Shown here: positions 3,460 through 58,867 of the stretch, one piece after another
How the letters are laid out: every line of letters begins with the position of its first letter
Position numbering within the stretch: the stretch's first letter is position 1
Source: Eledone cirrhosa
Lineage: Eukaryota
Assembly: GCA_964016885.1 (NCBI GenBank)
Contig: OZ024745.1
Span: 39,556,001-39,620,000 of the forward strand
Length of the DNA: 64,000 nucleotides
Direction of reading: 5' to 3'
Translations under genes and position numbers: made by a program
Notes under the pieces: generated by a model
Seen by the model: the letters and a program-made list of their open reading frames with translations, nothing else
Databases searched by the model: none
Told to the model about the DNA's origin: nothing

Positions 3460-5100
3460 ACGCAAGCTGTGTTTGCTTGCGCTTACCAGTTCCTCTTTCT
3501 TGTTTAGGAGTTGGTCCTTCGAAAACGGCATCTGTAATGTTTCCTCCGAGCATAAGTTTCACGGACGTCATCCTCCCGTGTAAGAGTTAGCTTTGGACAG
3601 TAAGCTCCAAGTGAGATTGTAGGTTATATTATTATCTTGGAGGTCCCAGATGTGGCCTGAAAGTGCCTGCTGGATCCGCTAAGGGAAGCTGGATAAAAGG
3701 ATATTTCCTCCCGGAAGCCGCTCTGCTTGAGGGCCTGGTTGTAATGAGGCGCGTTTTTGTCGAAAATCGGCTCATTAGCGGACAAACGAGATATGCAGAG
3801 GGAGATGTTTTTAACCAGGTTATTGGTGATGTTTCTAGGATGGTTAGAACGGCGGTGGATGTAGTGCAACTTGTCGTTTGGTTTCCTGTATGGGTAGTAC
3901 AGATCATTTTCGAGGTTAAGGGTAACGTTCAGGAAATTGACCTGGATTAGGGACGTCTGTAGGGTGATTTTAAATCCCCAGTCCCGGAAGTTGTTGATTA
4001 GTTGTTTACGGACCCGGTCTGTACTACTGGGGTTGTACCCTTTGAGGGTGAAGAGCCCATCATCCCGGTGCAATCCACCGCCGAATGCAGGAAACATTTC
4101 GGTGAGTTTAAATAGTCGGAATAATCCTAAAAGATCTGTGACCTTCGCCGATCCGTCGCGCCCAGGTGGAGTCGTGACCTCTCTTTATCCACTTAGAGTT
4201 GTCGAAAAGTAGGACTGTCTTCCTGGCGTGGAGAATGATATTTCTTTCCTGCTCAGTGATGGGTGTGATTGTTTCGGCAAAGTCCAAGGCGGCTGTAAGG
4301 AGCAGTAAGGTAATAGATGCACACTAACTCTCTTTGTCAAACTGGATGAATTTTGAGTCTCGTTTGTCCTCCATATTCCTGAACCATGAGATTACTTCCT
4401 GGGTGCTGACCCATAGGCTAAGTCTCACGTTTTGCTTAACTTTTGGTATAACTCCGTCTAGGATCTGTTTACTGTATCTCCCTATGTCCGACTTCGTTGG
4501 GTTTATAAGCCTAATGGGTGGTTTGCGGTTGAAATCGGATTTGTGGTCCTTCAGTGAGAAGTTGGGAGTCCCTGGGTCTAGGGGTTCAGTGCGGTCGGCG
4601 ACCCGGAGGTTGGAGATAATTTGTTGTCCATCTCGATTTATGTCCTCGATAATTGAATGGTTAGCCTTTTTATAGGTGGAGTTTAGGCTGCTCCTGATCA
4701 GTGTGTGGTATCTGTCAGGGTTGACGAAGTAGATGTTTCCTGTTTTGTCTGAGTGCACCATGATGTCGTTGATGTTTTCATACTCTGTTATTTTGCTACG
4801 GAGTTGTTGTAGGAATCAGTTGTATCTGGGTTTGCATTTAATGCTCTTGACCAGGTGGAACAGGTCGTTCTCGAACGTTGAGAGCATAGGGTTCGGGTGG
4901 GGAGATTTGTAGGTATTGAATCCGAATCTCTCCTTGGTGTCGAGGTCCTGATTGTCGCGGTAACTATCGTTGAAAAAAGTTCTCCATCTTAGTCTTTTCG
5001 CAAAAAGGTCGATTTTTTGCGTGAGCATCCGAAGCTAATGTTTTCTCGGTGGAACTGGGATGTTCTTGCTGGAGAAGTCGATGTTGCGTTTCCGCATCAT
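3460..5100 (-). pseudogene. Penelope-like RT ORF, fragmented; most of the endonuclease deleted, C-terminal remnant at 3460-3620
   Basis: ORFs 3624-4097, 4324-4761, 4816-5028 are collinear with the intact ORF at 53230-55052; remnant LTWSLLSKANSY...NLCSEE...LLNKKEEL. Confidence 0.88.
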
Positions 5101-5253
5101 ACGGGTGAAGAAACTTGATCTGGGTGGAAAAGTCGGGATATGGCGTGGTAGAGTCGGAAAGTGCTCTACTACAGAGATAGGAGCTAAATAACAAAAGAAT
5201 TGTGGTAAGGAACCAGATGGACCATAACGCACCAGAGTACTCAATACTTAGGG

Positions 5254-5733: not shown

Positions 5734-5831
5734 ATGGCTTCTCGGCCTTTTGGCTAAGATCAAAGTGTAGTATCTGTTCTCATCAGCTTAATATCTGATA
5801 CGGTCCCTATATGGGACCATCGATATTAAAT
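5734..5831 (+). pseudogene. U2: U2 snRNA 5'-portion retropseudogene with A-rich tail
   Basis: ATGGCTTCTCGGCCTTTTGGCTAAGATCAAAGTGTAGTATCTGTTC... includes the branch-point recognition sequence GTAGTA; ends before the Sm site; A-rich tail 5832-5847; 18-bp direct repeat ATTATTGAATGTGACAAA at 5659-5676 and 5850-5867. Confidence 0.92.
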
Positions 5832-6328
5832 AAAAAAAATAAAGAAATGATTATTGAATGTGACAAAACGACCACTTACTGCTCGTATACAGGAAACTGA
5901 CTGGCCAGTCTGCTGATATGCAAATATGGCTGATCAGTGGATCTGCTAATATGCAGATCTGACTGACTGCCAGTCTGCTAATATGGAAATCAGGCCGATA
6001 GTATGTGTATATGTTAGATAATAGCATATATTTTCACTAGCTCTGAAAGTTGGCAGGTGAACAGTGAGCTGTACTGATGGAGGGTGATACCCAGAATCAT
6101 TAGTGTCTGGAGTTCTGTTTACCTGCCAACACAAGAGCAAGAATGAAGGGTTCATTCTACTGACATGACTTAAAAAATGAGGTTTATTTGCATAATTGCA
6201 AACGAATCGAACGCTATATTATTAATATTCGAAAAGCTCACACTACATTTATACATATTTTAATGTATGACGCTGGATGTATATTTTAGTATACTGTAGT
6301 AGTTTTTTTGTTATTGATGTGTATGTGT

Positions 6329-6369
<41 letters not shown>

Positions 6370-6871
6370 TACACACATATATATATGTGGGTGTGTATGT
6401 GTGTGTGTGTATATATATGTGCGTATGTATATACATATGTGTGTGTATATATATGTGTGTATATGCATGTATGTGTATATATGTGTGCGTATATGTGTAT
6501 TTATATGTATGCGTGCGTGTATGTGTATGTGGGAGGGTGTGTATCTATATATATGTGTGTGTATATATTTATATATATACTTTGATGTATTTATTTATTT
6601 ATTTTTCTATTTACTTATTTATTTATATGTGTGTATGCACGCATGCATGTATGTATTTGGTTACATTGTTTATACTCGTGCATGTATAACAGGATGCAAC
6701 CTTTAATGGATGACCCTATCTGTTCTTTTGTGCAGATTTATATGACTATAGTATATAACATTTGAGTACGGACAGAGATATGTGTGTGCGTGTACGTATT
6801 TTTGAAGATGTATGTGGGCACGGAGGTATTTGGGCGCGTATTTGTTTGAATGTATATGAGCCAGTGTGTGT

Positions 6872-11790: not shown

Positions 11791-12082
11791 AATTCCTGCC
11801 AATGTGTATGGATGAAACACTGTTAGCTAATAAAATAATGTATTTCTAAGTACACTTAGGTTATTCCTATAACTATAACGGCTCTGTAGTATACGATTTA
11901 TTCTACATTGAGCAAAAAATACACTGTTATACCAAGGGCAATATATTTGCATGTCTGGGCATATTGATATATTTATCAACGAAATATAACTGCTCCCATT
12001 AGGTTGAGTTTAAAAATATCACCACTATGTATTAATAGATGTATACAACTATAGTCGCACACTGGTGTATAAACCTGGCAGT

Positions 12083-13500
12083 ATGCTAACCAAAGACCAT
12101 GTACCTCTGTCACTCAAGAACATTCCCATCCCATCTAGGAATACCTACGAAAGGTTGCTCATAACAAGCGTAAATTATTTTGTTAAAACATTAATGCGGC
12201 GTGCTTTCCACTACGATGGGAACCGGGATAACCCTCAGCAAACAACCCGGGTTAATAGGTATGGATTCAAGACATACACGAGCCCACCGCACAATAGTGG
12301 TCTGGATGGCTTTAAAAGCGACCTTCTAAACCTTGTGAAGGGTATTAGATATAGGACTAAAATCCATAGCACGAACCCTTTCCGTAGAGATCTTAGCTCT
12401 ATTATTAAGGGCTTCGAGGAAAATGCTAACATCCTCATCCCCTCAGATAAAATAAAAAACTTCATATACAGGGAACTCCACAGAAATTATAAGAAAACTA
12501 CTTATGGAAACCTAGACAAGATAAGTAAGAAAGGGCTAGAAATCGTTGAGACACTGAACCTGGAAAAGTACACCCAGCCTTTCACCCCTAAGCAATCCAG
12601 ATTCACACTGAAGGATCACAAAGAGTACTTCCTTAATAACCCCTCAATTAGGCTAATTAGCCCCTCTAAGTCTGACTTAGGGATAATAAGTAATACAATC
12701 TTGGACGCCGTCAATCCTGTTATACGAAGTAAAATTTACCTTGACCTATCGGGGAATACTAAGGAGGTCTTTAAATGATTCTTAAGCATTAGTAACCATA
12801 AGTCCCTGAAGTTCATCCACTTCGATATCAACTCATGCTATACCTCGATCTCTCCCATCCTTCTAAATAAGACCCTTATATTAGCTATGCAAAATAGTGA
12901 CCTGACTAGATCCCAAATTGACATCATCATTGCTGCCCGGAGAACTATCATCCTCTTCGAAGACCAACTTTGGACCCGGAAGAACACGCCGAATAACTTT
13001 GATGCCACAATGGGGTCCAGCGATGCGGCGCAAGTCACTGACTTGGTTGGACTTTATCTCCTACATGAACTGCATAAAAGATTCCCGCATTTCAAAGGCG
13101 AGCTATACCGTGACGACGCCCTGTTCACTATTGAATATAAAAAATATAATATAGAAAGGACGAGAAAAGAACTACATAAATTCTTCAAAAGCTTTAACCT
13201 TAGCATAACAATAGACATAAATAATAAAACGGTTAACTTTCTAGACGTAACCATAGACTTGGAAAATAAATATTTCGCACCCTATCACAAACCAGATGAA
13301 ACACTAACATACGTGAATGCAAATTCCAACCATCCTATACCCGTCCTAAATGCCATAATTAAAGGGGTATCTAACAGGATTAGCAGACTATCACATAATT
13401 AGCATGCATTTAGGTCTAATGCAATATACTATAATAAAGTACTTGTAAAGTCCGGTTTTAGAGAAAACAATATACTACATACATAATAATGCCTAAACCA
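12083..13500 (+). pseudogene. Penelope-like RT ORF with in-frame stops (12776, 13400); endonuclease not recognisable
   Basis: ORFs 12065-12778 and 12887-13402 are in the same frame, separated by TGA where the paralogues have Trp. Confidence 0.88.
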
Positions 13501-18447: not shown

Positions 18448-18492
<45 letters not shown>

Positions 18493-18749
18493 CATACACT
18501 AACACACACACACGCATATATATATATATATATAATTAAGTTAAAGTGTACATCTATATATGTATACGGAAGTATTAGTATGCATATAAATACACATATG
18601 TATACATATGTACATGTACCGAGTTTTTCACTAGACACTTTACAGTGAGTGTCCAGCTAGTCTGTATGTAAACAGACGAACCGGGTTTTAAAGTCATACG
18701 AGTTTTCAAGGAAACACATTTCCTCTATTCTCTAGAGAGCCAGACAGGA

Positions 18750-18792
18750 ATATTGGACTAGTTTCGATGTTATTACATCTCATCAGCAATAT
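18750..18792 (-). ncRNA. Minimal type I hammerhead ribozyme
   Basis: Exact reverse complement of 19712-19754. Confidence 0.9.
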
Positions 18793-19216
18793 ATACCTAT
18801 CTTTCCGGCTTCTCTGGAGAATTGTAAAAGCACATATCGTTATATGCTTTTTCTATGAAAATCAGTAGTGGGCAGACTAATTTGCATAGAACGTGAGTCA
18901 TTGTACGCACCAGTTCAGCGGAAACGATAAAAACGAATAACGAAACGAAATTAAATTTCGTTTCGCTTCTAACTCACTTTTGTATGACTGACGCTTAAAC
19001 AATTAAGTTAAAGTGTACATCTATATATGTATACGGAAGTATTAGTATGCATATAAATACACATATGTATACATATGTACATGTACCGAGTTTTTCACTA
19101 GACACTTTACAGTGAGTGTCCAGCTAGTCTGTATGTAAACAGACGAACCGGGTTTTAAAGTCATACGAGTTTTCAAGGAAACACATTTCCTCTATTCCCC
19201 AGAGAGCCAGACAGGA

Positions 19217-19259
19217 ATATTGGACTAGTTTCGATGTTATTACATCTCATCAGCAATAT
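19217..19259 (-). ncRNA. Minimal type I hammerhead ribozyme
   Basis: Exact reverse complement of 19712-19754. Confidence 0.9.
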
Positions 19260-19603
19260 ATACCTATCATCGAAACTAGTCCAATATTCCAGTCTGGCTC
19301 TCTGGAGAATAGAGGAAATGTGTTTCCTTGAAAACTCGTATGACTTTAAAACCCGGTTCGTCTGTTTACATACAGACTAGCTGGACACTCACTGTAAAGT
19401 GTCTAGTGAAAAACTCGGTACATGTACATATGTATACATATGTGTATTTATATGCATACTAATACTTCCGTATACATATATAGATGTACACTTTAACTTA
19501 ATTGTTTAAGCGTCAGTCATACAAAAGTGAGTTAGAAGCGAAACGAAATTTAATTTCGTTTCGTTATTCGTTTTTATCGTTTCCGCTGAACTGGTGCGTA
19601 CAA

Positions 19604-19698
19604 TGACTCACGTTCTATGCAAATTAGTCTGCCCACTACTGATTTTCATAGAAAAAGCATATAACGATATGTGCTTTTACAATTCTCCAGAGAAGCCG
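19604..19698 (+). promoter_or_regulatory. Candidate internal promoter: TGACTCA, octamer ATGCAAAT (19617-19624), SPH/ZNF143-like TTACAATTCTCCAGAGAAGCC
   Basis: Motifs read directly; the octamer context ACTCAC..TATGCAAATTAG is conserved in the sister family (26678-26700, minus). Confidence 0.4.
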
Positions 19699-19711
19699 GA
19701 AAGATAGGTAT

Positions 19712-19754
19712 ATATTGCTGATGAGATGTAATAACATCGAAACTAGTCCAATAT
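19712..19754 (+). ncRNA. Minimal type I hammerhead ribozyme, predicted cleavage after GUC (19748)
   Basis: ATATTG-CTGATGA-GATG TAATAA CATC-GAAA-CTAG-TC-CAATAT: full canonical core, 6-bp stem I, 4-bp stem II, palindromic stem III. Confidence 0.92.
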
Positions 19755-20036
19755 TCCTGTCTGGCTCTCTGAAGAATAGAGGAAATGTGTTTCCTTGAAA
19801 ACTCGTATGACTTTAAAACCCGGTTCGTCTGTTTACATACAGACTAGCTGGACACTCACTGTAAAGTGCCTAGTGAAAAACTCGGTACATGTACATATGT
19901 ATACATATGTGTATTTATATGCATACTAATACTTCCGTATACATATATAGATGTACACTTTAACTTAATTGTTTAAGCGTCAGTCATACAAAAGTGAGTT
20001 AGAAGCGAAACGAAATTTAATTTCGTTTCGTTATTC

Positions 20037-20128
<92 letters not shown>

Positions 20129-20134
20129 CATATA

Positions 20135-20218
<84 letters not shown>

Positions 20219-26288: not shown

Positions 26289-26860
26289 GGAAAAGAATGA
26301 AACGAAATTTCGTTTCTCACTCTTAGTACGGCTGATACTTAAATGTAAGTATGTATGTATACGTACATACCTATATGTATACAGACGTACAGTAGTATGT
26401 ATATATATACATAGATGCACAGATATATATATGTACGCATTGGTTTACCGAACATTTATTATAATGTTTGGTTTCTTTGTTTGTAAACAAAAAAACAGCC
26501 CGAATTACGCCGTACAGTGTTTAGGCAAACATCGTCGCCCTTTTGTTCAACACTGACACAGGTAGGATGTACTAGTTTCAAGCGTATTAGCTATCGTCAG
26601 CATCGTATACCTGCCTGCCAGATGATTGAACGTCTGAAAGTATATACTTTCCTTATGCATATTAACGGCTGAGCAGCCTAATTTGCATATCGAGTGAGTT
26701 AGTCGGCCGGGCGCACCGAAAACGATAAATGGAAAATTATGAAACGAAATTTCATTTCTCACTCTTAGTACGGCTGATACTTAAATGTAAGTATGTATGT
26801 ATACGTACATACATATATGTATACAGACGTGCAGTAGTATGTATATATATGCATACATGC
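26289..26860 (-). mobile_element. Second retrozyme-like family, ~441-bp tandem unit (about 1.3 copies)
   Basis: ATGAAACGAAATTTC.TTTCTCACTCTTAGTACGGCTGATAC occurs at 26298 and 26739; HHR and octamer inside; microsatellites on both sides. Confidence 0.8.
26559..26613 (-). ncRNA. Type I hammerhead ribozyme motif
   Basis: Minus: CAGGTA..GATG-CTGACGA-T AGC TAATAC GCT T-GAAA-CTAG-TA-CATC..TACCTG. Confidence 0.8.
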
Positions 26861-33018: not shown

Positions 33019-33132
33019 ATAGTTTAATACACATAACATGTATGCAACACCATAGGTCTCGGGTGTAATTCGGGCTGCTATTTGTTTACAAACAAACCGA
33101 CCATTATAATAAATGATCGGTAAACCCATACG

Positions 33133-33184
<52 letters not shown>

Positions 33185-33224
33185 TATATGTATGTATATA
33201 CATACTATTGTAGGTCTTCATACA

Positions 33225-33295
33225 TAAATGTATGTACGTATACATACTTATATTTAAGTATCAGCCGTACTAAGAGTGAGAAATGAAATTTCATG

Positions 33296-33335
<40 letters not shown>

Positions 33336-33430
33336 GGAAATTGCATTTCTCACTCTTAGTTCGGCTGTCACTTAAATATAAGTATGTATACGTACATACA
33401 TATATGTATGTACATATATATATGTACAGA
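33225..33430. repeat. Two 3' ends of the 441-bp family facing each other across one (TA)n
   Basis: TTAAGTATCAGCCGTACTAAGAGTGAGAAATG (TA)n CATTTCTCACTCTTAGTTCGGCTGTCACTTAA. Confidence 0.8.
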
Positions 33431-33456
33431 CGTACATACTTATATATATTTATATA

Positions 33457-33535
<79 letters not shown>

Positions 33536-39091: not shown

Positions 39092-39606
39092 AATAATAAT
39101 AAATTCGAAGACTAAAATCCAAAGAAGGCTCGATAAGGATAAATATATATCAAATATATAAGAACCGTAGAGCAAATATTTATTAAAATAACAGATTAAA
39201 GTTTAAGCAAAAAATCGCTGCTTTCACCCTTAACGGGATCTTCTGAAACTAAAAAAATCAATCTGTGAACGCAGAAGTAAATATATCAAAAACCGTTCAA
39301 ACCGAAGGAAGAGAGGAGCGCGATATTTTGGTTCGTGGAAACGTTCCCTGGCAAAGATCGGATAAAGACAAAGATAATACGTTATAATTTGGAGCGGTGA
39401 AAACAATTACACGAAAAGACAAAACCACGTTAATTGTAGAAATGAAGTCGTAGACTAATATTCTATTAGGTAGTTCGTGGAGACGGTCTCTGGCAATGAA
39501 CGGAAAAAACGAAGATAAATTGTCATTTGAGTTCACAGATTGATTTTTTTTAGTTTCAAAATATCCCGTTAAGGTTGAAAGCAGCGATTCTTTGCTTAAA
39601 CTTTAA
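39092..39606. mobile_element. Family I element with inverted arms (39092-39270 and 39530-39606); further copies 48532-48670, 58598-58798 (fold-back), 59005-59080
   Basis: Shared GAAGACTAAAATCCAAAGA.GGCTCGATAAGGATAAA...; degenerate core CAGAAGA-TCCC GTTAA GGGT-GAAA on the minus strand at ~39222-39245. Confidence 0.75.
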
Positions 39607-44658: not shown

Positions 44659-45207
44659 TATTTCCACCCTCTAATCTCAAGTGTGAACGTAATACCAACA
44701 CTGTTCGTAGTGCACTTTTGTTATTGTTTTGTTTTTGTTTGTTACTTATATATATATATATATTGTTATACTTTTGGAGGGTCATGTTGCAATAATAAAC
44801 ACACGCAGCAGTTGCATTCACTTGTGTGTTGACAACACACACTCAAACAAGATGGCGTTGCACAGAACAAAGGTGGGGCACAACAAAAGAAAAGTATCCC
44901 CAGTCATTGATGATGTCACATATTGTGTGACGAAAGAACTTTGACAATATATGAACAACTGTCCGGTTGTGGAACCAACCAACCCGACATTTATAAATTT
45001 TTAAATTTATAATTTATATAAAATTGAAGTGAATGCAACTGGTGCGTGTGTTTCTTATTGTCAACATGACCCTCCCAATGTATAACAATATCCGTTTCAA
45101 CACACGTTTGCAGATAAAGAATCTTGCTAAACAAATTCAGAAACGAAATATATATATATATATATATAGGGAGAGATAGATAGATAGATAGAGAGAGAGA
45201 AAGAGTG

Positions 45208-48539: not shown

Positions 48540-49751
48540 ATGTGAAGACTAAAATCCAAAGAGGGCTCGATAAGGATAAATATATATCAAATATATAAGG
48601 AAGCTAGACCAAATATTTATTAAAATAACAGATTAAAGTTTAAGCAAATAATCGCTGCTTTCACCCTTAATTATATATATATTACCATGTAGCACACGCT
48701 TTATTTTACTCCTCCTGTTTTTTATCTTATAGATTTGCGTATATCTGTATTTCTGTTTTATTACCGTTCGAAGATTAATTGTGTAATTCATTTCAATAAT
48801 TATTTGGTCCTCATTTGTAGTAAACAAAGGGAATTGGGAATTGAATGTAGATATTTACCCATGCGTTTCCTATAAAGGAAATTTGCCCTATGGTATTTCT
48901 TTAAATATTCTACTGTAAATTTAACAGTTGAATATTCAGATATCTTGGGGATCTGTTTGTAAAACAAACATACATTATTTGTTTTTTTCCATATGTCAGA
49001 TGTTCACTTATGATGTTGGTGTTCTAATTCTTTAGTGTATGAAACAGCCTACTGCTAAATGTAACGTGAACATTATTGGGTAGTCCGCACATATGTGTGC
49101 CCTAAATGAATATTTCAGGGAAATTCAGCGTGATACTTCATATAACATTTTGAATCAAAGATACACCTGATTTGTTTTCTATGTGTGAAATAGGGATAGG
49201 TGTAATAAATTGTCTTGTCGAAACCACACTACCCTACGATTGCAACGCTCCATCCCATCAATTTCAATTCTCATCGTATTTTTGATTACTGCAATATCCA
49301 CTACTCTTAGACCTATGTGCACACTTGAGTACCGGAAGCAATTTTTTTACCTAGGAACAGAATATATTTATAAGAATTTATAACAGAATTGTGTTTAATT
49401 TTTTTTTTATTTTCATTTAAATAAAGAATATTCATTTATATATCATGTTATATAATATAGCTCTAGATCCGATTGTCTTTTCTTGTGCTTTCTTGCAAAT
49501 CTTGTCACACAAAATATGATTTTGATAGAACTACGAAATATCGATTCCTATTTTGTACTGGAAAACACATTTCCTTAAGTTATTTAACAAATTATATTTT
49601 AAATTCGTAATTTCGTGGTACAAATTGAACGTATTTCAGCAGGTTCCATCCCCCATTGAATGTTCTACTAGTTTGTATTAAAACGGTTGTCATATTTACG
49701 ATATTCATTTTGTCCATCTACTGACAGAAAAGAAGAGATACACAATCTTGA

Positions 49752-52001: not shown

Positions 52002-52036
<35 letters not shown>

Positions 52037-52038
<2 letters not shown>

Positions 52039-52868
52039 TATTTTCCGTTGTGTTGTAATATAAATATTACACACAGTAGATTATCAGCTCACGTAGAGTT
52101 TGCTCGACGGTTTCAGTTGTAGTTCCAAAAGTAATCCGGAGAAAAATAGAAAGATTTGAATGGATACAGTTTAGTTGAAAGGAATTTATTGACACGTGTT
52201 TCTATAACAGTTACATAACCTAAAACAGCTGCTATCTACAAACTTTTAGTTATGCAGACATTCAATATTTCAATGTTATTATTTACTGTCATTTCATCAG
52301 AATAATATTACTGAGGACCTATTTAGTTTTTATAGAGAATATTAGGAGGAAGGGGTGAAGTTGTTAGAAGAATAGTTGAAGGAGTGGTTTTTCGATAGCA
52401 GTGAGAATTCTTGGTGGCAGTGAGTAATTAGATTCCCATCTGTTGTTTTGACATTTTTTATAGAATATATTATTGGTTATTTTTCTAAATCTATAGAAGG
52501 ATTAGAGATAGTAAAGATATGCGTGGTTGGTTTTGTGTTTGCACTTAATTAACATTCAGACTTAAATTTTTCTTTCAAGTGTACGTATCCTTTCACCCAC
52601 GCATTCACACACTAATATTTTTGCACACCTCTACAAAATACGTATACTCACAATTCACATATTCATACTTACATATATATACACATGCATACACATATAT
52701 ATACACACATGTATTCATGTACATACATACGCGCTCATGTGTATACATTTTCATACTCAACTTATCTTTATATACACACGTATAGACACACACATATATA
52801 CATACATACTCTAGTCCATGTGTACACACATACACATACATACACATCCATATACACATATATACATA

Positions 52869-52902
<34 letters not shown>

Positions 52903-52917
52903 TACACATATATATAC

Positions 52918-52962
<45 letters not shown>

Positions 52963-55052
52963 CACTTTAATACATTAATACACTTACATCTAACTATACA
53001 CATCAAACATATGTATATATTTACTTATTTATATACATTTTCACATATATATACATACTTATGGACGTTTTTAGACACATTCATTATCGCATATTTGTAC
53101 CTATTCTCATCAGCATATCTTTCCATTATTAGTATGGTAATTTAAGGTTATTAATATATGTTGAGAAGAGATTGTTTTTATATTTTTCTAACTAGATTAA
53201 GGTTTATATAGTTGGGGGATGTCCCTCTTTTATGTAATATTCGGCTTGTAGTGGGAAAAAAGGGTTTTAGTTTTGTGACGGCAGAATAATGTTCGTTCAA
53301 TTCTGTTATTCAGCAGTTTCTTCTTGTGTGTGATTATGTAATAAATCTCAAGATTACACAATTTGCAGAAATGTTGGCTCCTGGAAAAGCTTTGGGTTTT
53401 AGCTAATTTTTCCCATTTTAGGGTAAACTTTTGGTCGCTATCCCTGAGCGTCCAAGCTTTTTCTGCTAAAGTTGTTACATTTCTTTGGCTCTGGTGTTTT
53501 ATTGAGTAAGAATGCCTATACAATCGAAATTTAAACGATGTTGCCGTTGATCCCACGTAATACCACTCGTTGCCTCCGGATTTAATGGTACACTTATAAA
53601 TAATATTTTTTTCCAGGCAGTTATTGCCGAGGGGGCAGTTGTCAGGATAGGTGCAGTTACAGTTGTGTACGTTGGGTTTTCTCTGGAGTAGTATTGCGGA
53701 CGAACTTAGGTGTGGTTTATTTATGTTCTGTAGTGTATTGTCTACTGTTTTTTTTGTGTTCTTTGTACTTAAGTTCTTAGTGTTTTCGTTTAACCTTCTA
53801 GTATTGATCTTTTTTATGTGTTGTTCAAGGTTTAACGCTGTAGAGTATGACAGTCTTATAGTGGTAGGGTTTAGGATTTTGTGGTATTTGTGTGATGTGG
53901 GAAAATGTCTTTTAATTATTTTAAAGAAGAGTACTGGTAAATTTGTACTAATGGAGCTATTGTATTCGGGGTTATACCATAAGTACTCTTTGCATCGCTT
54001 TCTATTAGTTTTGTTTGTTGGTTTACTGGTGTGCATACTATGGTAGTAAGTGTGGTTTGGTGTTGTGTTATTATATCTACCTATATGGGATTTATTTTGG
54101 GTGTTTTGATTGTTCCCATCTATGTACTCTATTTTGTTGAGGTAGCCTGCTTTACTAAGGGCGTTATCGTAGTACTCGGCGTGTTCCTTAAATACTTGTA
54201 TGTTAGAAGATAGACCCGAGATTCTAAGGGAAATATTTTTAGGGATAGATTTAATTATAGAGATGGGGTGGTTAGACCCAACATTTACGTATTTGAGATT
54301 TTCATTCAATTTATGAAACGGTTTAATCAAACTAGAGTTTAAATTGAGTGTGACATCCAGGAAGTTAACTACTTTAAGGTTGTATTCATATGTTATAGTT
54401 AGTCCTATTTCGAGTAGTAGTTTTCTTATATCTTTGCGTAGTTTTTCTAGTTTTTGGTTATTAAGGTTTTTAGCTAGGAGGAGAACATCGTCGCGGTATA
54501 TTCCGCCGTGGAGATTGCTGAATTTTTCCTGGAGTCTAAAGGCGATAAATAACCCCACAATATCAGTTATTTCCGCCGAATCGTTAGAGCCCATTGTTAT
54601 GTCAAAGTTAGAGGGTCTATCTTTACGTACCCAATAACTGTTCTCAAATTTGACTATAGTTTTCCTAGCTTCTAATATAATCTTAATTTCATCGTTTGTA
54701 AGGTCAGAGTTATCCTTAGCAAACTTAATGGCTCTATTCAAAGTTTCAGGTGATATCGATGAGTAATATTCATCGATATCAAACTGGATAAACTTAGATT
54801 TATTCTTATTGCTAATGCTATTAAACCATCTTATTGCTTCTTGGGTCTTCCCCCAGAGTTTAATGTTAACCTTAGCCTTAATTTGGGGGATGATTCTATC
54901 TAAGATATATTTGCTTATTTTACCTATATCTGATTTAGAGGGGCAGATTAATCTAATTTTAGGGTCATTATCAAAGTTTACCTTGTGGTCCTTAAGATTG
55001 AAGGTGGGTACCGCCGGTAAGAGTGGTCCTGTCCTATCTTCGATTCCGAGAT
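52037..55052 (-). mobile_element. Penelope-like retroelement (Naiad-like), 5'-truncated, with HHR core in the 3' region (52250-52305)
   Basis: ORF below; minus CTGATGA-AATG..CATT-GAAA-TATT G AATG-TC about 210 bp from the (TA)n-bounded 3' end; 3' boundary inferred. Confidence 0.8.
53230..55052 (-). CDS. Penelope-like reverse transcriptase plus GIY-YIG endonuclease, uninterrupted ~607 codons, N-terminus missing
   Basis: NLKDHK, FIQFDI..YYSSI, TMGSNDSAE, GIYRDD, VNFLDVTLNL, SNHP, LWYNP, CNC..CP...C, IIY..YVG, CKLC, LLN, CRH; the listed ORF start (55152) runs in from microsatellite sequence. Confidence 0.93.
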
Positions 55053-56348
55053 TTATATATATATATACACACACACACATGTATATCTGAATATATGTAT
55101 ATATATAAAGGTCATGTACATGTTCCGCAAGATTCATGTTGTGTGAAATCATGTTTGAAACAGATGTTTTATTTGGGGATTGTCATATTGACAATTTTGC
55201 CATCAGAGATACATGCATCATGCAATTTTTATTTCATCCCTATTGTTCATTATTCATTGTATATATTTTTTCCATCACGCATTATGCATCCTCTTCAAAG
55301 ATTATATTTGTTGCGTCTTAAACTTCTACCCCGTCTTCTCCGTGCTTGTTTTGTGATGCGGATTTTGTTTTATGTCTCTTGATGCGCTTGGGTATGCGTC
55401 TCTAAGTGTGTGTACGCGTGTGTATGTACGCCTGTTTGTGATTGCCACCTCTATGTCAATTTTATGTGTGTGTGGATTTGTATTGTTTTCTGTTTTGCTG
55501 TTAGGGACTCTTTATATTTGTGTCTTTATTCTATCTCCACTTATTTAATTGCAGTCTCTTACCCGCCCATACTATTCTTTTCTGTTCATGCTAGCACTAT
55601 CTTATAATATGTATGATTTGGCATTAAGTGCCAGCAATGACTGAAGGCGGGATAATGGCACAAACAACATAAAGCACACTTATGACAAACACAACACGTG
55701 CAGGAACAGTCGTAGACGAAAATTTAAGGACTTACACGAAACACAAAATACGCACCACAAAAAGAAAAAAGACAGGAGGGATTAGAATTTTAAAACCAGG
55801 AAAAATAGGGGGCACCAAAGTGATAACCATTGAAGAGGTCATAGTATGCGGGACGAATTTCTTTTTTTAATAATCAAATGAATAACAAACAATAAATAAA
55901 GTTAAAATGAAAATGATATGGTGCGTATGATTATTTCTATTAGCAATATTGGCAACATGATCACCCCCAAATATAACAATGTATATTATATGCATGTACA
56001 ATATCGGAGAGTAGAGTAAATGAAATGCATAAACAATGTCGACAATCCCGTAAGCATTCAATAAAGGTGTAATTGTTGATTGCTGAAAATAGTAGCATAG
56101 AATATTCATTAGAATACACTTACACTTACACACTATCAAATGATGCGATATCTATGTGTCATAAAACACAAATAAAAATTGATTTAAGTATATGTAGGTT
56201 TAATGTGTTTTTTCGCAACCAGATGTTTCTGGCTTCAGTCTCTCTCGGTGATACCTTGGTATATTGTCTTTTGCTATCACTCATAGTATAACAAATATTT
56301 GTGTGTGGGATTATGTAAATGTTGTAGTCATAAAATGCAGAAAATGAT

Positions 56349-58585: not shown

Positions 58586-58867
58586 TATATATATATATTT
58601 ATTAAATAACAGATTAAAGTTTAAGCAGAGAATCGCTTCTTTCACCCTTAACATGGATCTTCCGAAAGCAGAGATTCTTTGCTTAAACTGTAATCTGTTA
58701 TTTTAATAAATATTTGCTCTACGGTTCTTATATATTTGATATATATTTATCCTTATCGAGCCCTCTTTGGATTTTAGTCTTCAAATTTTTATTATAACTA
58801 TATATATATATATATAAAATAATTAAGTCAAATATTTACTCCGGAGTAATCAACCAACATATCCTCA

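Follow-up and report, generated by a model that had tools for sequence, protein, structure and literature searches.

The inverted repeat at 18534-20041 of the analysed window, by which we mean the whole 64,000-nucleotide stretch of Eledone cirrhosa DNA, belongs to a dispersed, non-coding retrozyme family with a 467-bp unit that numbers more than a thousand young insertions. Its palindromic shape is normal for the family and corresponds to the standard insertion of Penelope-type elements, two-armed and with two fixed ends. The insertion was probably made by a Penelope-type reverse transcriptase (RT)-endonuclease that copied a 467-nt RNA, itself probably circular, from both sides of a cut in a (TA)n tract. 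An earlier note on this DNA had proposed a recently active non-LTR retrozyme family; dispersed young copies lacking any tie to an open reading frame (ORF) support that reading at the sequence level.

Locus anatomy and predicted ribozymes

The insertion consists of two arms arranged head-to-head, with their 5' ends meeting in a 1-nt overlap. The left arm spans 735 nt, or 1.57 units as read from direct repeats spaced 467 nt apart, and the right arm spans 774 nt, or 1.66 units; they differ at 5 of 702 aligned sites (99.3% identity), and (TA)n forms both flanks, a sequence in which a target-site duplication would be hidden. These values agree with the initial description of a non-coding 467-bp unit in about 1.6 copies per strand, placed head-to-head in (TA)n. 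The same description spoke of a 1.5-kb palindrome, of which the inverted arms stand and perfect symmetry does not, as inverted arms of 711 nt enclose a 25-nt spacer and the right arm extends about 70 nt further at its outer end. No stop-to-stop frame of at least 150 amino acids in the window's ORF list overlaps the insertion, and the longest frame in the circularised monomer is 65 amino acids, which marks the unit as non-coding. The features of the locus are as follows, with monomer positions counted from c1, the first base 3' of the predicted cleavage site.

18450..18533, no strand: (TA)n/(CA)n target, left side
18534..19268, minus strand: left arm, running from c422 over a complete monomer to the 'short' fixed end at c222
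18751..18791, minus strand: type I hammerhead, predicted cleavage between 18756 and 18755
18756..19222, minus strand: 467-nt monomer bounded by two whole hammerheads, predicted to be the piece that can be excised and circularised
19218..19258, minus strand: type I hammerhead, predicted cleavage between 19223 and 19222
19268..20041, plus strand: right arm, running from c454 over a complete monomer to the 'long' fixed end at c293
19268..19287, plus strand: 3' half-hammerhead, where the right arm is truncated at its 5' end
19616..19650, plus strand: hairpin whose 12-nt 5' strand contains ATGCAAAT, invariant in families A, B and C
19713..19753, plus strand: type I hammerhead, predicted cleavage after 19748 (C of GUC)
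19971..20041, plus strand: Penelope-type 'tail' of about 70 nt between the short and long ends, restricted to the right arm, at its outer end, and containing a 13-bp hairpin
20042..20218, no strand: (TA)n target, right side

All three complete type I hammerheads were recovered with the sequence originally quoted for them, as was a half ribozyme marking the inversion point, and the cleavage position formerly placed after 19748 coincides with the predicted site. At this insertion, two whole ribozymes occur in the minus arm only. The hammerhead core (CUGANGA and GAAA), an NUH site and stems I-III are all present, and the core is invariant in nine related sequences from families A to D. In the same alignment, 95.8% of 144 stem cells are paired, compared with 31-52% in slid controls, and 7 of 16 pairs have changed on both sides, although the relatedness of the nine sequences means that these pair changes are not independent. 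The Rfam comparison suggested in the earlier note gave no match to hammerhead models at gathering thresholds in the window.

The term 'minimal', previously applied to these hammerheads, suits stem III, which comprises A-U and C-G around two bases or, alternatively, one pair with a CUAG loop; it does not suit stem I, which extends beyond an internal loop, or stem II, which has 4-5 pairs. By computation, a one-pair stem III would cost the monomer about 6 kcal/mol, and self-pairing of the six-base palindrome amounts to -4.8. The axolotl ribozyme HHR_Amex1 has the same stem III arrangement and is reported to cleave efficiently as a dimer only (PMC7229834); by this analogy, the 1-2 pairs around CUAG are consistent with the dimeric cleavage already proposed from the palindromic stem III. 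A point against the model is that, for Xenopus retrozyme dimers, a lack of cleavage is reported in 8 of 9.

Variation among copies indicates constraint on the ribozyme. When the haplotypes of different loci are compared, 2 of the 43 ribozyme sites are variable, compared with 57 of 349 sites elsewhere (p = 0.04), and the tail shows 6 variable sites of 75 against the same background (p = 0.07), four loci being left out of both comparisons; post-insertion mutation is even over the monomer regions (0.29-0.38%). The monomer has a folding energy of -147.6 kcal/mol (z = -8.4), which none of 100 shuffles equalled, and the alignment of its fold (seven rows, one out of phase) contains compensatory pairs. 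The active hammerhead is absent from the predicted minimum-energy folds, in which the active core is masked.

Family size and paired insertion ends

The exact 43-nt ribozyme motif matches the genome 1,317 times, compared with 0 matches for its reversed control, and a looser ribozyme pattern, which takes in older sister families, matches 23,086 times. A whole-unit search returned 1,087 candidates, of which 40 were scored, the best whole-unit matches being 96-100% identical. Sister family B is 84-90% identical to family A, the present 467-nt family, and family C about 66% in the alignable part, as read from loci. The junction of the long end with (TA)n, common to families A and B, has 2,238 exact genome matches, and a short-end pattern has 779 forward and 1,617 reverse matches, the latter including overlapping ones. 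Median divergence is near 1% within a locus compared with 3.4% to other loci, and the flanks of different family A loci are unrelated; the genome-wide check of copies and flanks recommended at the outset therefore comes out in favour of dispersal.

It had also been foreseen that copies always flanking an RT ORF would reduce the unit to a tandem pseudo-LTR. No ORF-linked arm occurs in the 65 family A loci, for which a tblastn screen gave no sense continuation of the arms into an RT or endonuclease frame, and no such continuation was found in 20 sister-family loci. These 20 loci, chosen for lone or divergent ribozymes, contained sister retrozymes only and no parent element, and a profile search for a parent element over the sampled loci gave no ORF-linked match among the matches listed.

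Several further repeats were encountered in the same material. One retrozyme insertion is present twice, 17.7 kb apart and with an identical flank (L079 and L080), which represents a segmental duplication. Within the window, older copies of family C lie at 26296-26858 (minus strand) and 33118-33499, the second being two-armed. An unrelated hammerhead-like repeat with 310-bp spacing begins at 5947 of L139 and has 8 matches in the sampled loci.

The word ATGCAAAT has a role in a newt repeat, for which an snRNA-type promoter has been reported. An snRNA-type promoter in the 467-bp unit, suggested by this word, found no support, as the words shared upstream of U1 and U2 genes are absent from the unit; the octamer is lacking in 13 of 13 U1/U2 upstream regions. 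The upstream regions themselves (L141-L159) share words near -258 (ACCTCCCTT-like) and -57 (TCAGT), which by their look are the lineage's snRNA promoter elements. A retrozyme piece at 107-602 of L151 lies within the spacer of a tandem U1 gene array and may have amplified with the array. In the window, positions 5734-5842 hold the start of U2 snRNA (~100 bases) with an A-rich run behind it, and look like a truncated U2 retrocopy.

Insertion ends were mapped in 65 distinct loci, 37 drawn from the best whole-unit matches, 28 from those exact matches that come first on C1, with overlapping loci and one segmental duplicate removed; the set, consisting of best hits and the start of C1, is non-random. 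The outer ends occupy two zones, c221-228 (short) and c284-297 (long), and mostly pass into (TA)n. All 38 two-armed loci with regular ends pair a short end with a long end, and the remaining loci comprise 17 with a long arm only, 5 with a short arm only and 5 with an irregular second piece. On inspection, a short-end arm is also present in L025, L112 and L118, which stand outside the 38-locus count, and several 'single' arms keep a 7-13 nt vestige of the other end. A coordinate test over the first 97 Mb of C1, a set overlapping the 65 loci, yielded 42 short-long pairs, one long-long and one short-short pair from 87 long and 65 short ends, and each of the two exceptions consists of two neighbouring insertions. 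Among 70 loci chosen by one end, 32 were new and had two complete arms, and the other end was present in every one of these (32/32). Family C has homologous ends, 59 nt apart.

The inner 5' ends are scattered over the monomer, and the inversion point is different at every locus. The 43 arm junctions comprise 28 with an overlap of 1-8 nt, 2 blunt ones, 7 with 1-3 added nt and 6 larger ones. The central half ribozyme at 19268 is where random 5' truncation fell. The insertions display hallmarks of non-autonomous Penelope-like elements, namely an inverted 5'-truncated copy, a tail at one end and a microsatellite target.

Candidate helpers, RNA template and rival explanations

Two candidate helper families are represented in the window, outside the insertion:

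44760..45151, no strand: older two-armed fragment, pseudo-LTR of the Neptune-type family 'Z', 83-92% identical
52028..55054, minus strand: Hydra-clade Penelope-like element, 5'-truncated young copy with RT, CxCx5C linker, C-terminal GIY-YIG and a hammerhead core at 52305

The window ORF at 53230-55182 combines a Penelope-like RT with a C-terminal GIY-YIG and CxCx5C, CxxC, CxH and RWK motifs, and the target is (TA)n. Pfam gave no match on 8 window ORFs, which were read by motif; on such inspection the local elements are of the Hydra clade, and the 'Naiad-like' label given to them at first is not supported, on account of the C-terminal GIY-YIG with CxCx5C, CxxC and CxH. The young Hydra family is very abundant (60,147 candidates, 150 scored), has frames of 782-785 amino acids in 10 loci chosen for such frames, and possesses two ends 118 nt apart; those of family Z are 60 nt apart. 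In 60 sequences screened for the two families, Hydra end pairs were short-long in 16 cases (15 distinct) and short-short in one, which includes a duplicated flank, and family Z pairs were short-long in 5 of 5, so that together the autonomous families show short-long pairing in 20 of 21 distinct pairs. The window also contains older broken Hydra-type RT fragments at 12014-13459 (plus strand) and 3696-5106 (minus strand), with ~40% protein identity to the young family, and end pieces of a second Hydra-type family at 39153-39606, 48590-48670 and 58595-58736, two of them two-armed.

Two chimeric loci join retrozyme arms to arms of autonomous elements. At 1600-2865 of L107, a long-end retrozyme arm stands head-to-head with a short-end family Z arm that is 99% identical to its closest copies; the junction is a short overlap with no TA between, and both outer ends lie in (TA)n. 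In L130, a family C arm stands head-to-head with a Hydra endonuclease 3' end, and the fusion occurs twice (3723-4574 and 5996-6846) in inverted orientation at 96.8% identity. Each could be a deletion between neighbouring insertions. Both chimeras join arms of two different RNAs, which makes the use of two templates possible. No second chimera of the L107 type was found among 40 scored candidates of a junction search or in 70 more loci. The unit has no significant sequence homology to the three candidate helper families, and the best word shared with the Neptune-type Z tail is 10 nt long and was equalled by 16 of 300 shuffles. L027 and L087 were considered as helper evidence and dismissed, the adjoining Penelope-like copies being old and broken (L027: 87% to the young family). 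We regard the helper as a Penelope-like element with a C-terminal endonuclease, Neptune-type or Hydra at about even odds.

Regarding the template, 93 of 101 arms run across the cleavage site, 39 cross two sites and none starts at the cleavage site. As the crossings are seamless, with indels in 0 of 150, the template was continuous at this site. Nor do 5' ends pile up there, 14 of 101 falling within c448-c20 where ~9 are expected. The distribution of variants is informative as well. L077 is star-like, with 21 variable sites over ~7 units and none shared between units. In 53 loci (the 12 long or irregular ones set aside), 126 variants are found within loci, and 10 of them are seen again in a second locus, one of the ten in the same subfamily and at the same offset, and the 46 loci compared fall into 15-20 haplotype clusters, each haplotype being common to all copies of a locus. 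This pattern suggests that short arrays begin from identical units and favours rolling-circle reverse transcription of a circle, since such copying predicts repeated passage through a single monomer, from which multimers are then synthesised. In only 18 of the 36 loci compared do the two arms differ less from each other than from their closest relative at another locus, so that both arms need not come from a single RNA molecule; in the same-molecule comparison of private alleles, 3 are fixed across both arms compared with 68 single-copy and 8 partial ones. In four longer arrays, shared variants are grouped in blocks, which points to duplication of the DNA at a later stage. The array L073-L075 and L105, on C1 from ~95.62 Mb, exceeds 36 kb and keeps a short fixed end at one side; with its multi-unit block duplications it is a satellite grown from one insertion.

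In the proposed mechanism, a tandem transcript would cleave itself, probably as a double hammerhead formed through the palindromic stem III, and the released monomer would be ligated into a circle. An enzyme dimer would then nick both strands of the target, and each nicked end would prime at one of two start sites. Both cDNAs would be extended along the circle, over anything from 0.1 to about 6 turns, before their ends are joined, and very long arrays would reflect later growth by block duplication in DNA. The assignment of one start site to each strand is proposed from the paired ends of retrozyme and autonomous families, the two RT start sites and the extension of both strands. Tentatively, and with slightly less than even confidence, we suggest that an enzyme dimer grips a single ribozyme-made circle at two set sites and copies it repeatedly from both ends of a double-strand cut. 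If true, this would explain the inverted arms, one-sided tail and tandem arrays of Penelope-like elements together. It would also provide the first complete, reconstitutable retrozyme-helper pair, in which a 467-nt circle is combined with an intact young ORF, Neptune-type or Hydra, encoded in the same genome, and possibly one parasite RNA exploiting helpers of two clades.

The principal rival to copying of a circle retains the same enzyme, start sites and two-sided priming and takes an uncleaved linear multimer from a tandem source as the template, the ribozyme having another role or none in insertion. We judge it unlikely, while giving it more weight than any other alternative. For an anole Penelope element in vitro, the ribozyme is reported to be dispensable for insertion and uncleaved RNA to be the main template (PMC11167929); long arrays able to supply multimers exist in this genome (L073_105, >36 kb), and seamless crossings and uniform 5' ends fit a multimer equally well. 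However, these long arrays are internally mixed (2.6%, block-duplicated), in contrast to the star-like short insertions, which seldom have variants in common. Many haplotypes, each extending over all copies of a locus, would require the repeated passage through one monomer, and hence many freshly homogenised sources, and the constraint on the ribozyme likewise argues against this reading.

The other alternatives are far less probable. Template jumping is performed by some non-LTR RTs, and a linear cleaved monomer copied end to end in this manner would also give unit-homogeneous multimers; yet none of 101 arms starts at c1 and none of 150 crossings carries an indel, which leaves this route very little room. 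About equally improbable, or marginally more so, is an origin of the palindrome in DNA, through fold-back or inverted duplication of a satellite, or as an assembly artefact, with no RNA step. Block duplication at the DNA level does occur in the long arrays, and the Hydra locus L063 has an inverted duplication that includes its flank, but inversion points vary by locus, in contrast to fixed outer ends that differ between the two arms, flanks are unrelated between loci, and the pairing rule also holds in autonomous retroelements. We give as little credence to the unit being merely the pseudo-LTR of an autonomous element, or being mobilised by Naiad elements. A parent element could sit among copies outside the sample, yet no arm in the 65 family A or the 20 sister-family loci runs in sense into an RT or endonuclease frame. 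Naiads likewise insert in (TA)n and form inverted structures, but they are unlikely helpers, as the local ORFs are Hydra and as Naiads are described with an N-terminal endonuclease, without canonical hammerheads and, in the part of the literature covered, as remnants in cephalopods. Copying of a probably circular RNA by a Penelope-type enzyme is thus the explanation that we prefer.

Comparison with known systems

Non-LTR retrozymes of metazoans have been described from coral, mussel, axolotl (Rtz331 and Rtz353) and newt (satellite 2) (PMC7229834; preprint 10.64898/2026.07.22.740005). As far as these sources were available, they resemble the 467-nt family in having GC-poor, non-coding tandem units that each contain a single type I hammerhead, a highly self-paired monomer, a weak stem III with a palindromic loop, many copies and Penelope-like elements alongside. 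By its sequence, the family falls within the definition of a non-LTR retrozyme (tandem hammerhead units with at least two consecutive ribozymes, non-coding and dispersed). Its unit of 467 nt compares with 170-400 nt (PMC7229834) and 51-972 bp (10.64898/2026.07.22.740005). Two-armed insertions with two fixed ends are a feature of the 467-nt family for which no description was met in the accessible parts of these two sources. Homology to pseudo-LTRs is reported for Xenopus families (10.64898/2026.07.22.740005) and was not found for the 467-nt unit; the U1/U2-like internal promoter of newt satellite 2 has no counterpart in the unit, as judged against 13 upstream regions. Expression and circles, which the model predicts for the present family, have been demonstrated for metazoan retrozymes.

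Insertions of endonuclease-containing (EN+) Penelope-like elements, as described in the available part of PMC8557442, resemble the present ones in that they form partial tandems, include a 5'-truncated copy in inverted orientation and often carry a tail at just one of their ends; (TA)n targeting is reported there for Hydra, Neptune and Naiad. The 467-nt family differs in having no ORF, in a tail of about 70 nt rather than 30-40, and in a short-with-long pairing that has been counted and is close to strict. The window ORF at 53230-55182 resembles Hydra-1_Obim (PMC8557442 supplement) in its RT motif series, as compared by eye, and in the common CxCx5C, CxxC and CxH motifs; also by eye, the two appear to be distinct families. 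The green anole Poseidon element PAc has two internal RT start sites downstream of a hammerhead with the tail between them, an AT-rich target, cutting and extension of both strands and a predicted dimer (PMC11167929). In the portion of that study covered, the start sites are not tied to the two arms of inverted insertions and circular templates are unmentioned; the start site is equal between strands, in contrast to one site per arm in the 467-nt family.

A literature search in which subscription journals were mostly uncovered found no published description of the 467-nt family or of the paired-end rule as a mechanism. The retrozyme class, the suspected Penelope-like helper superfamily and the two start sites are, according to the sources available, already in print. 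Mobilisation of retrozymes by a Penelope-like RT, with rolling-circle copying of circular RNA, has so far been a proposal in the sources covered (PMC7229834; 10.64898/2026.07.22.740005), and the origin of tandem and inverted Penelope-like insertions has been named an open problem (PMC8557442). To these systems the present family adds young insertions in the thousands, with nearly strict start-site pairing, and intact candidate enzymes in the same genome, which makes the model testable in vitro with the 467-nt RNA. Judged from its sequence features, it is a further animal non-LTR retrozyme, with a clean Penelope footprint.
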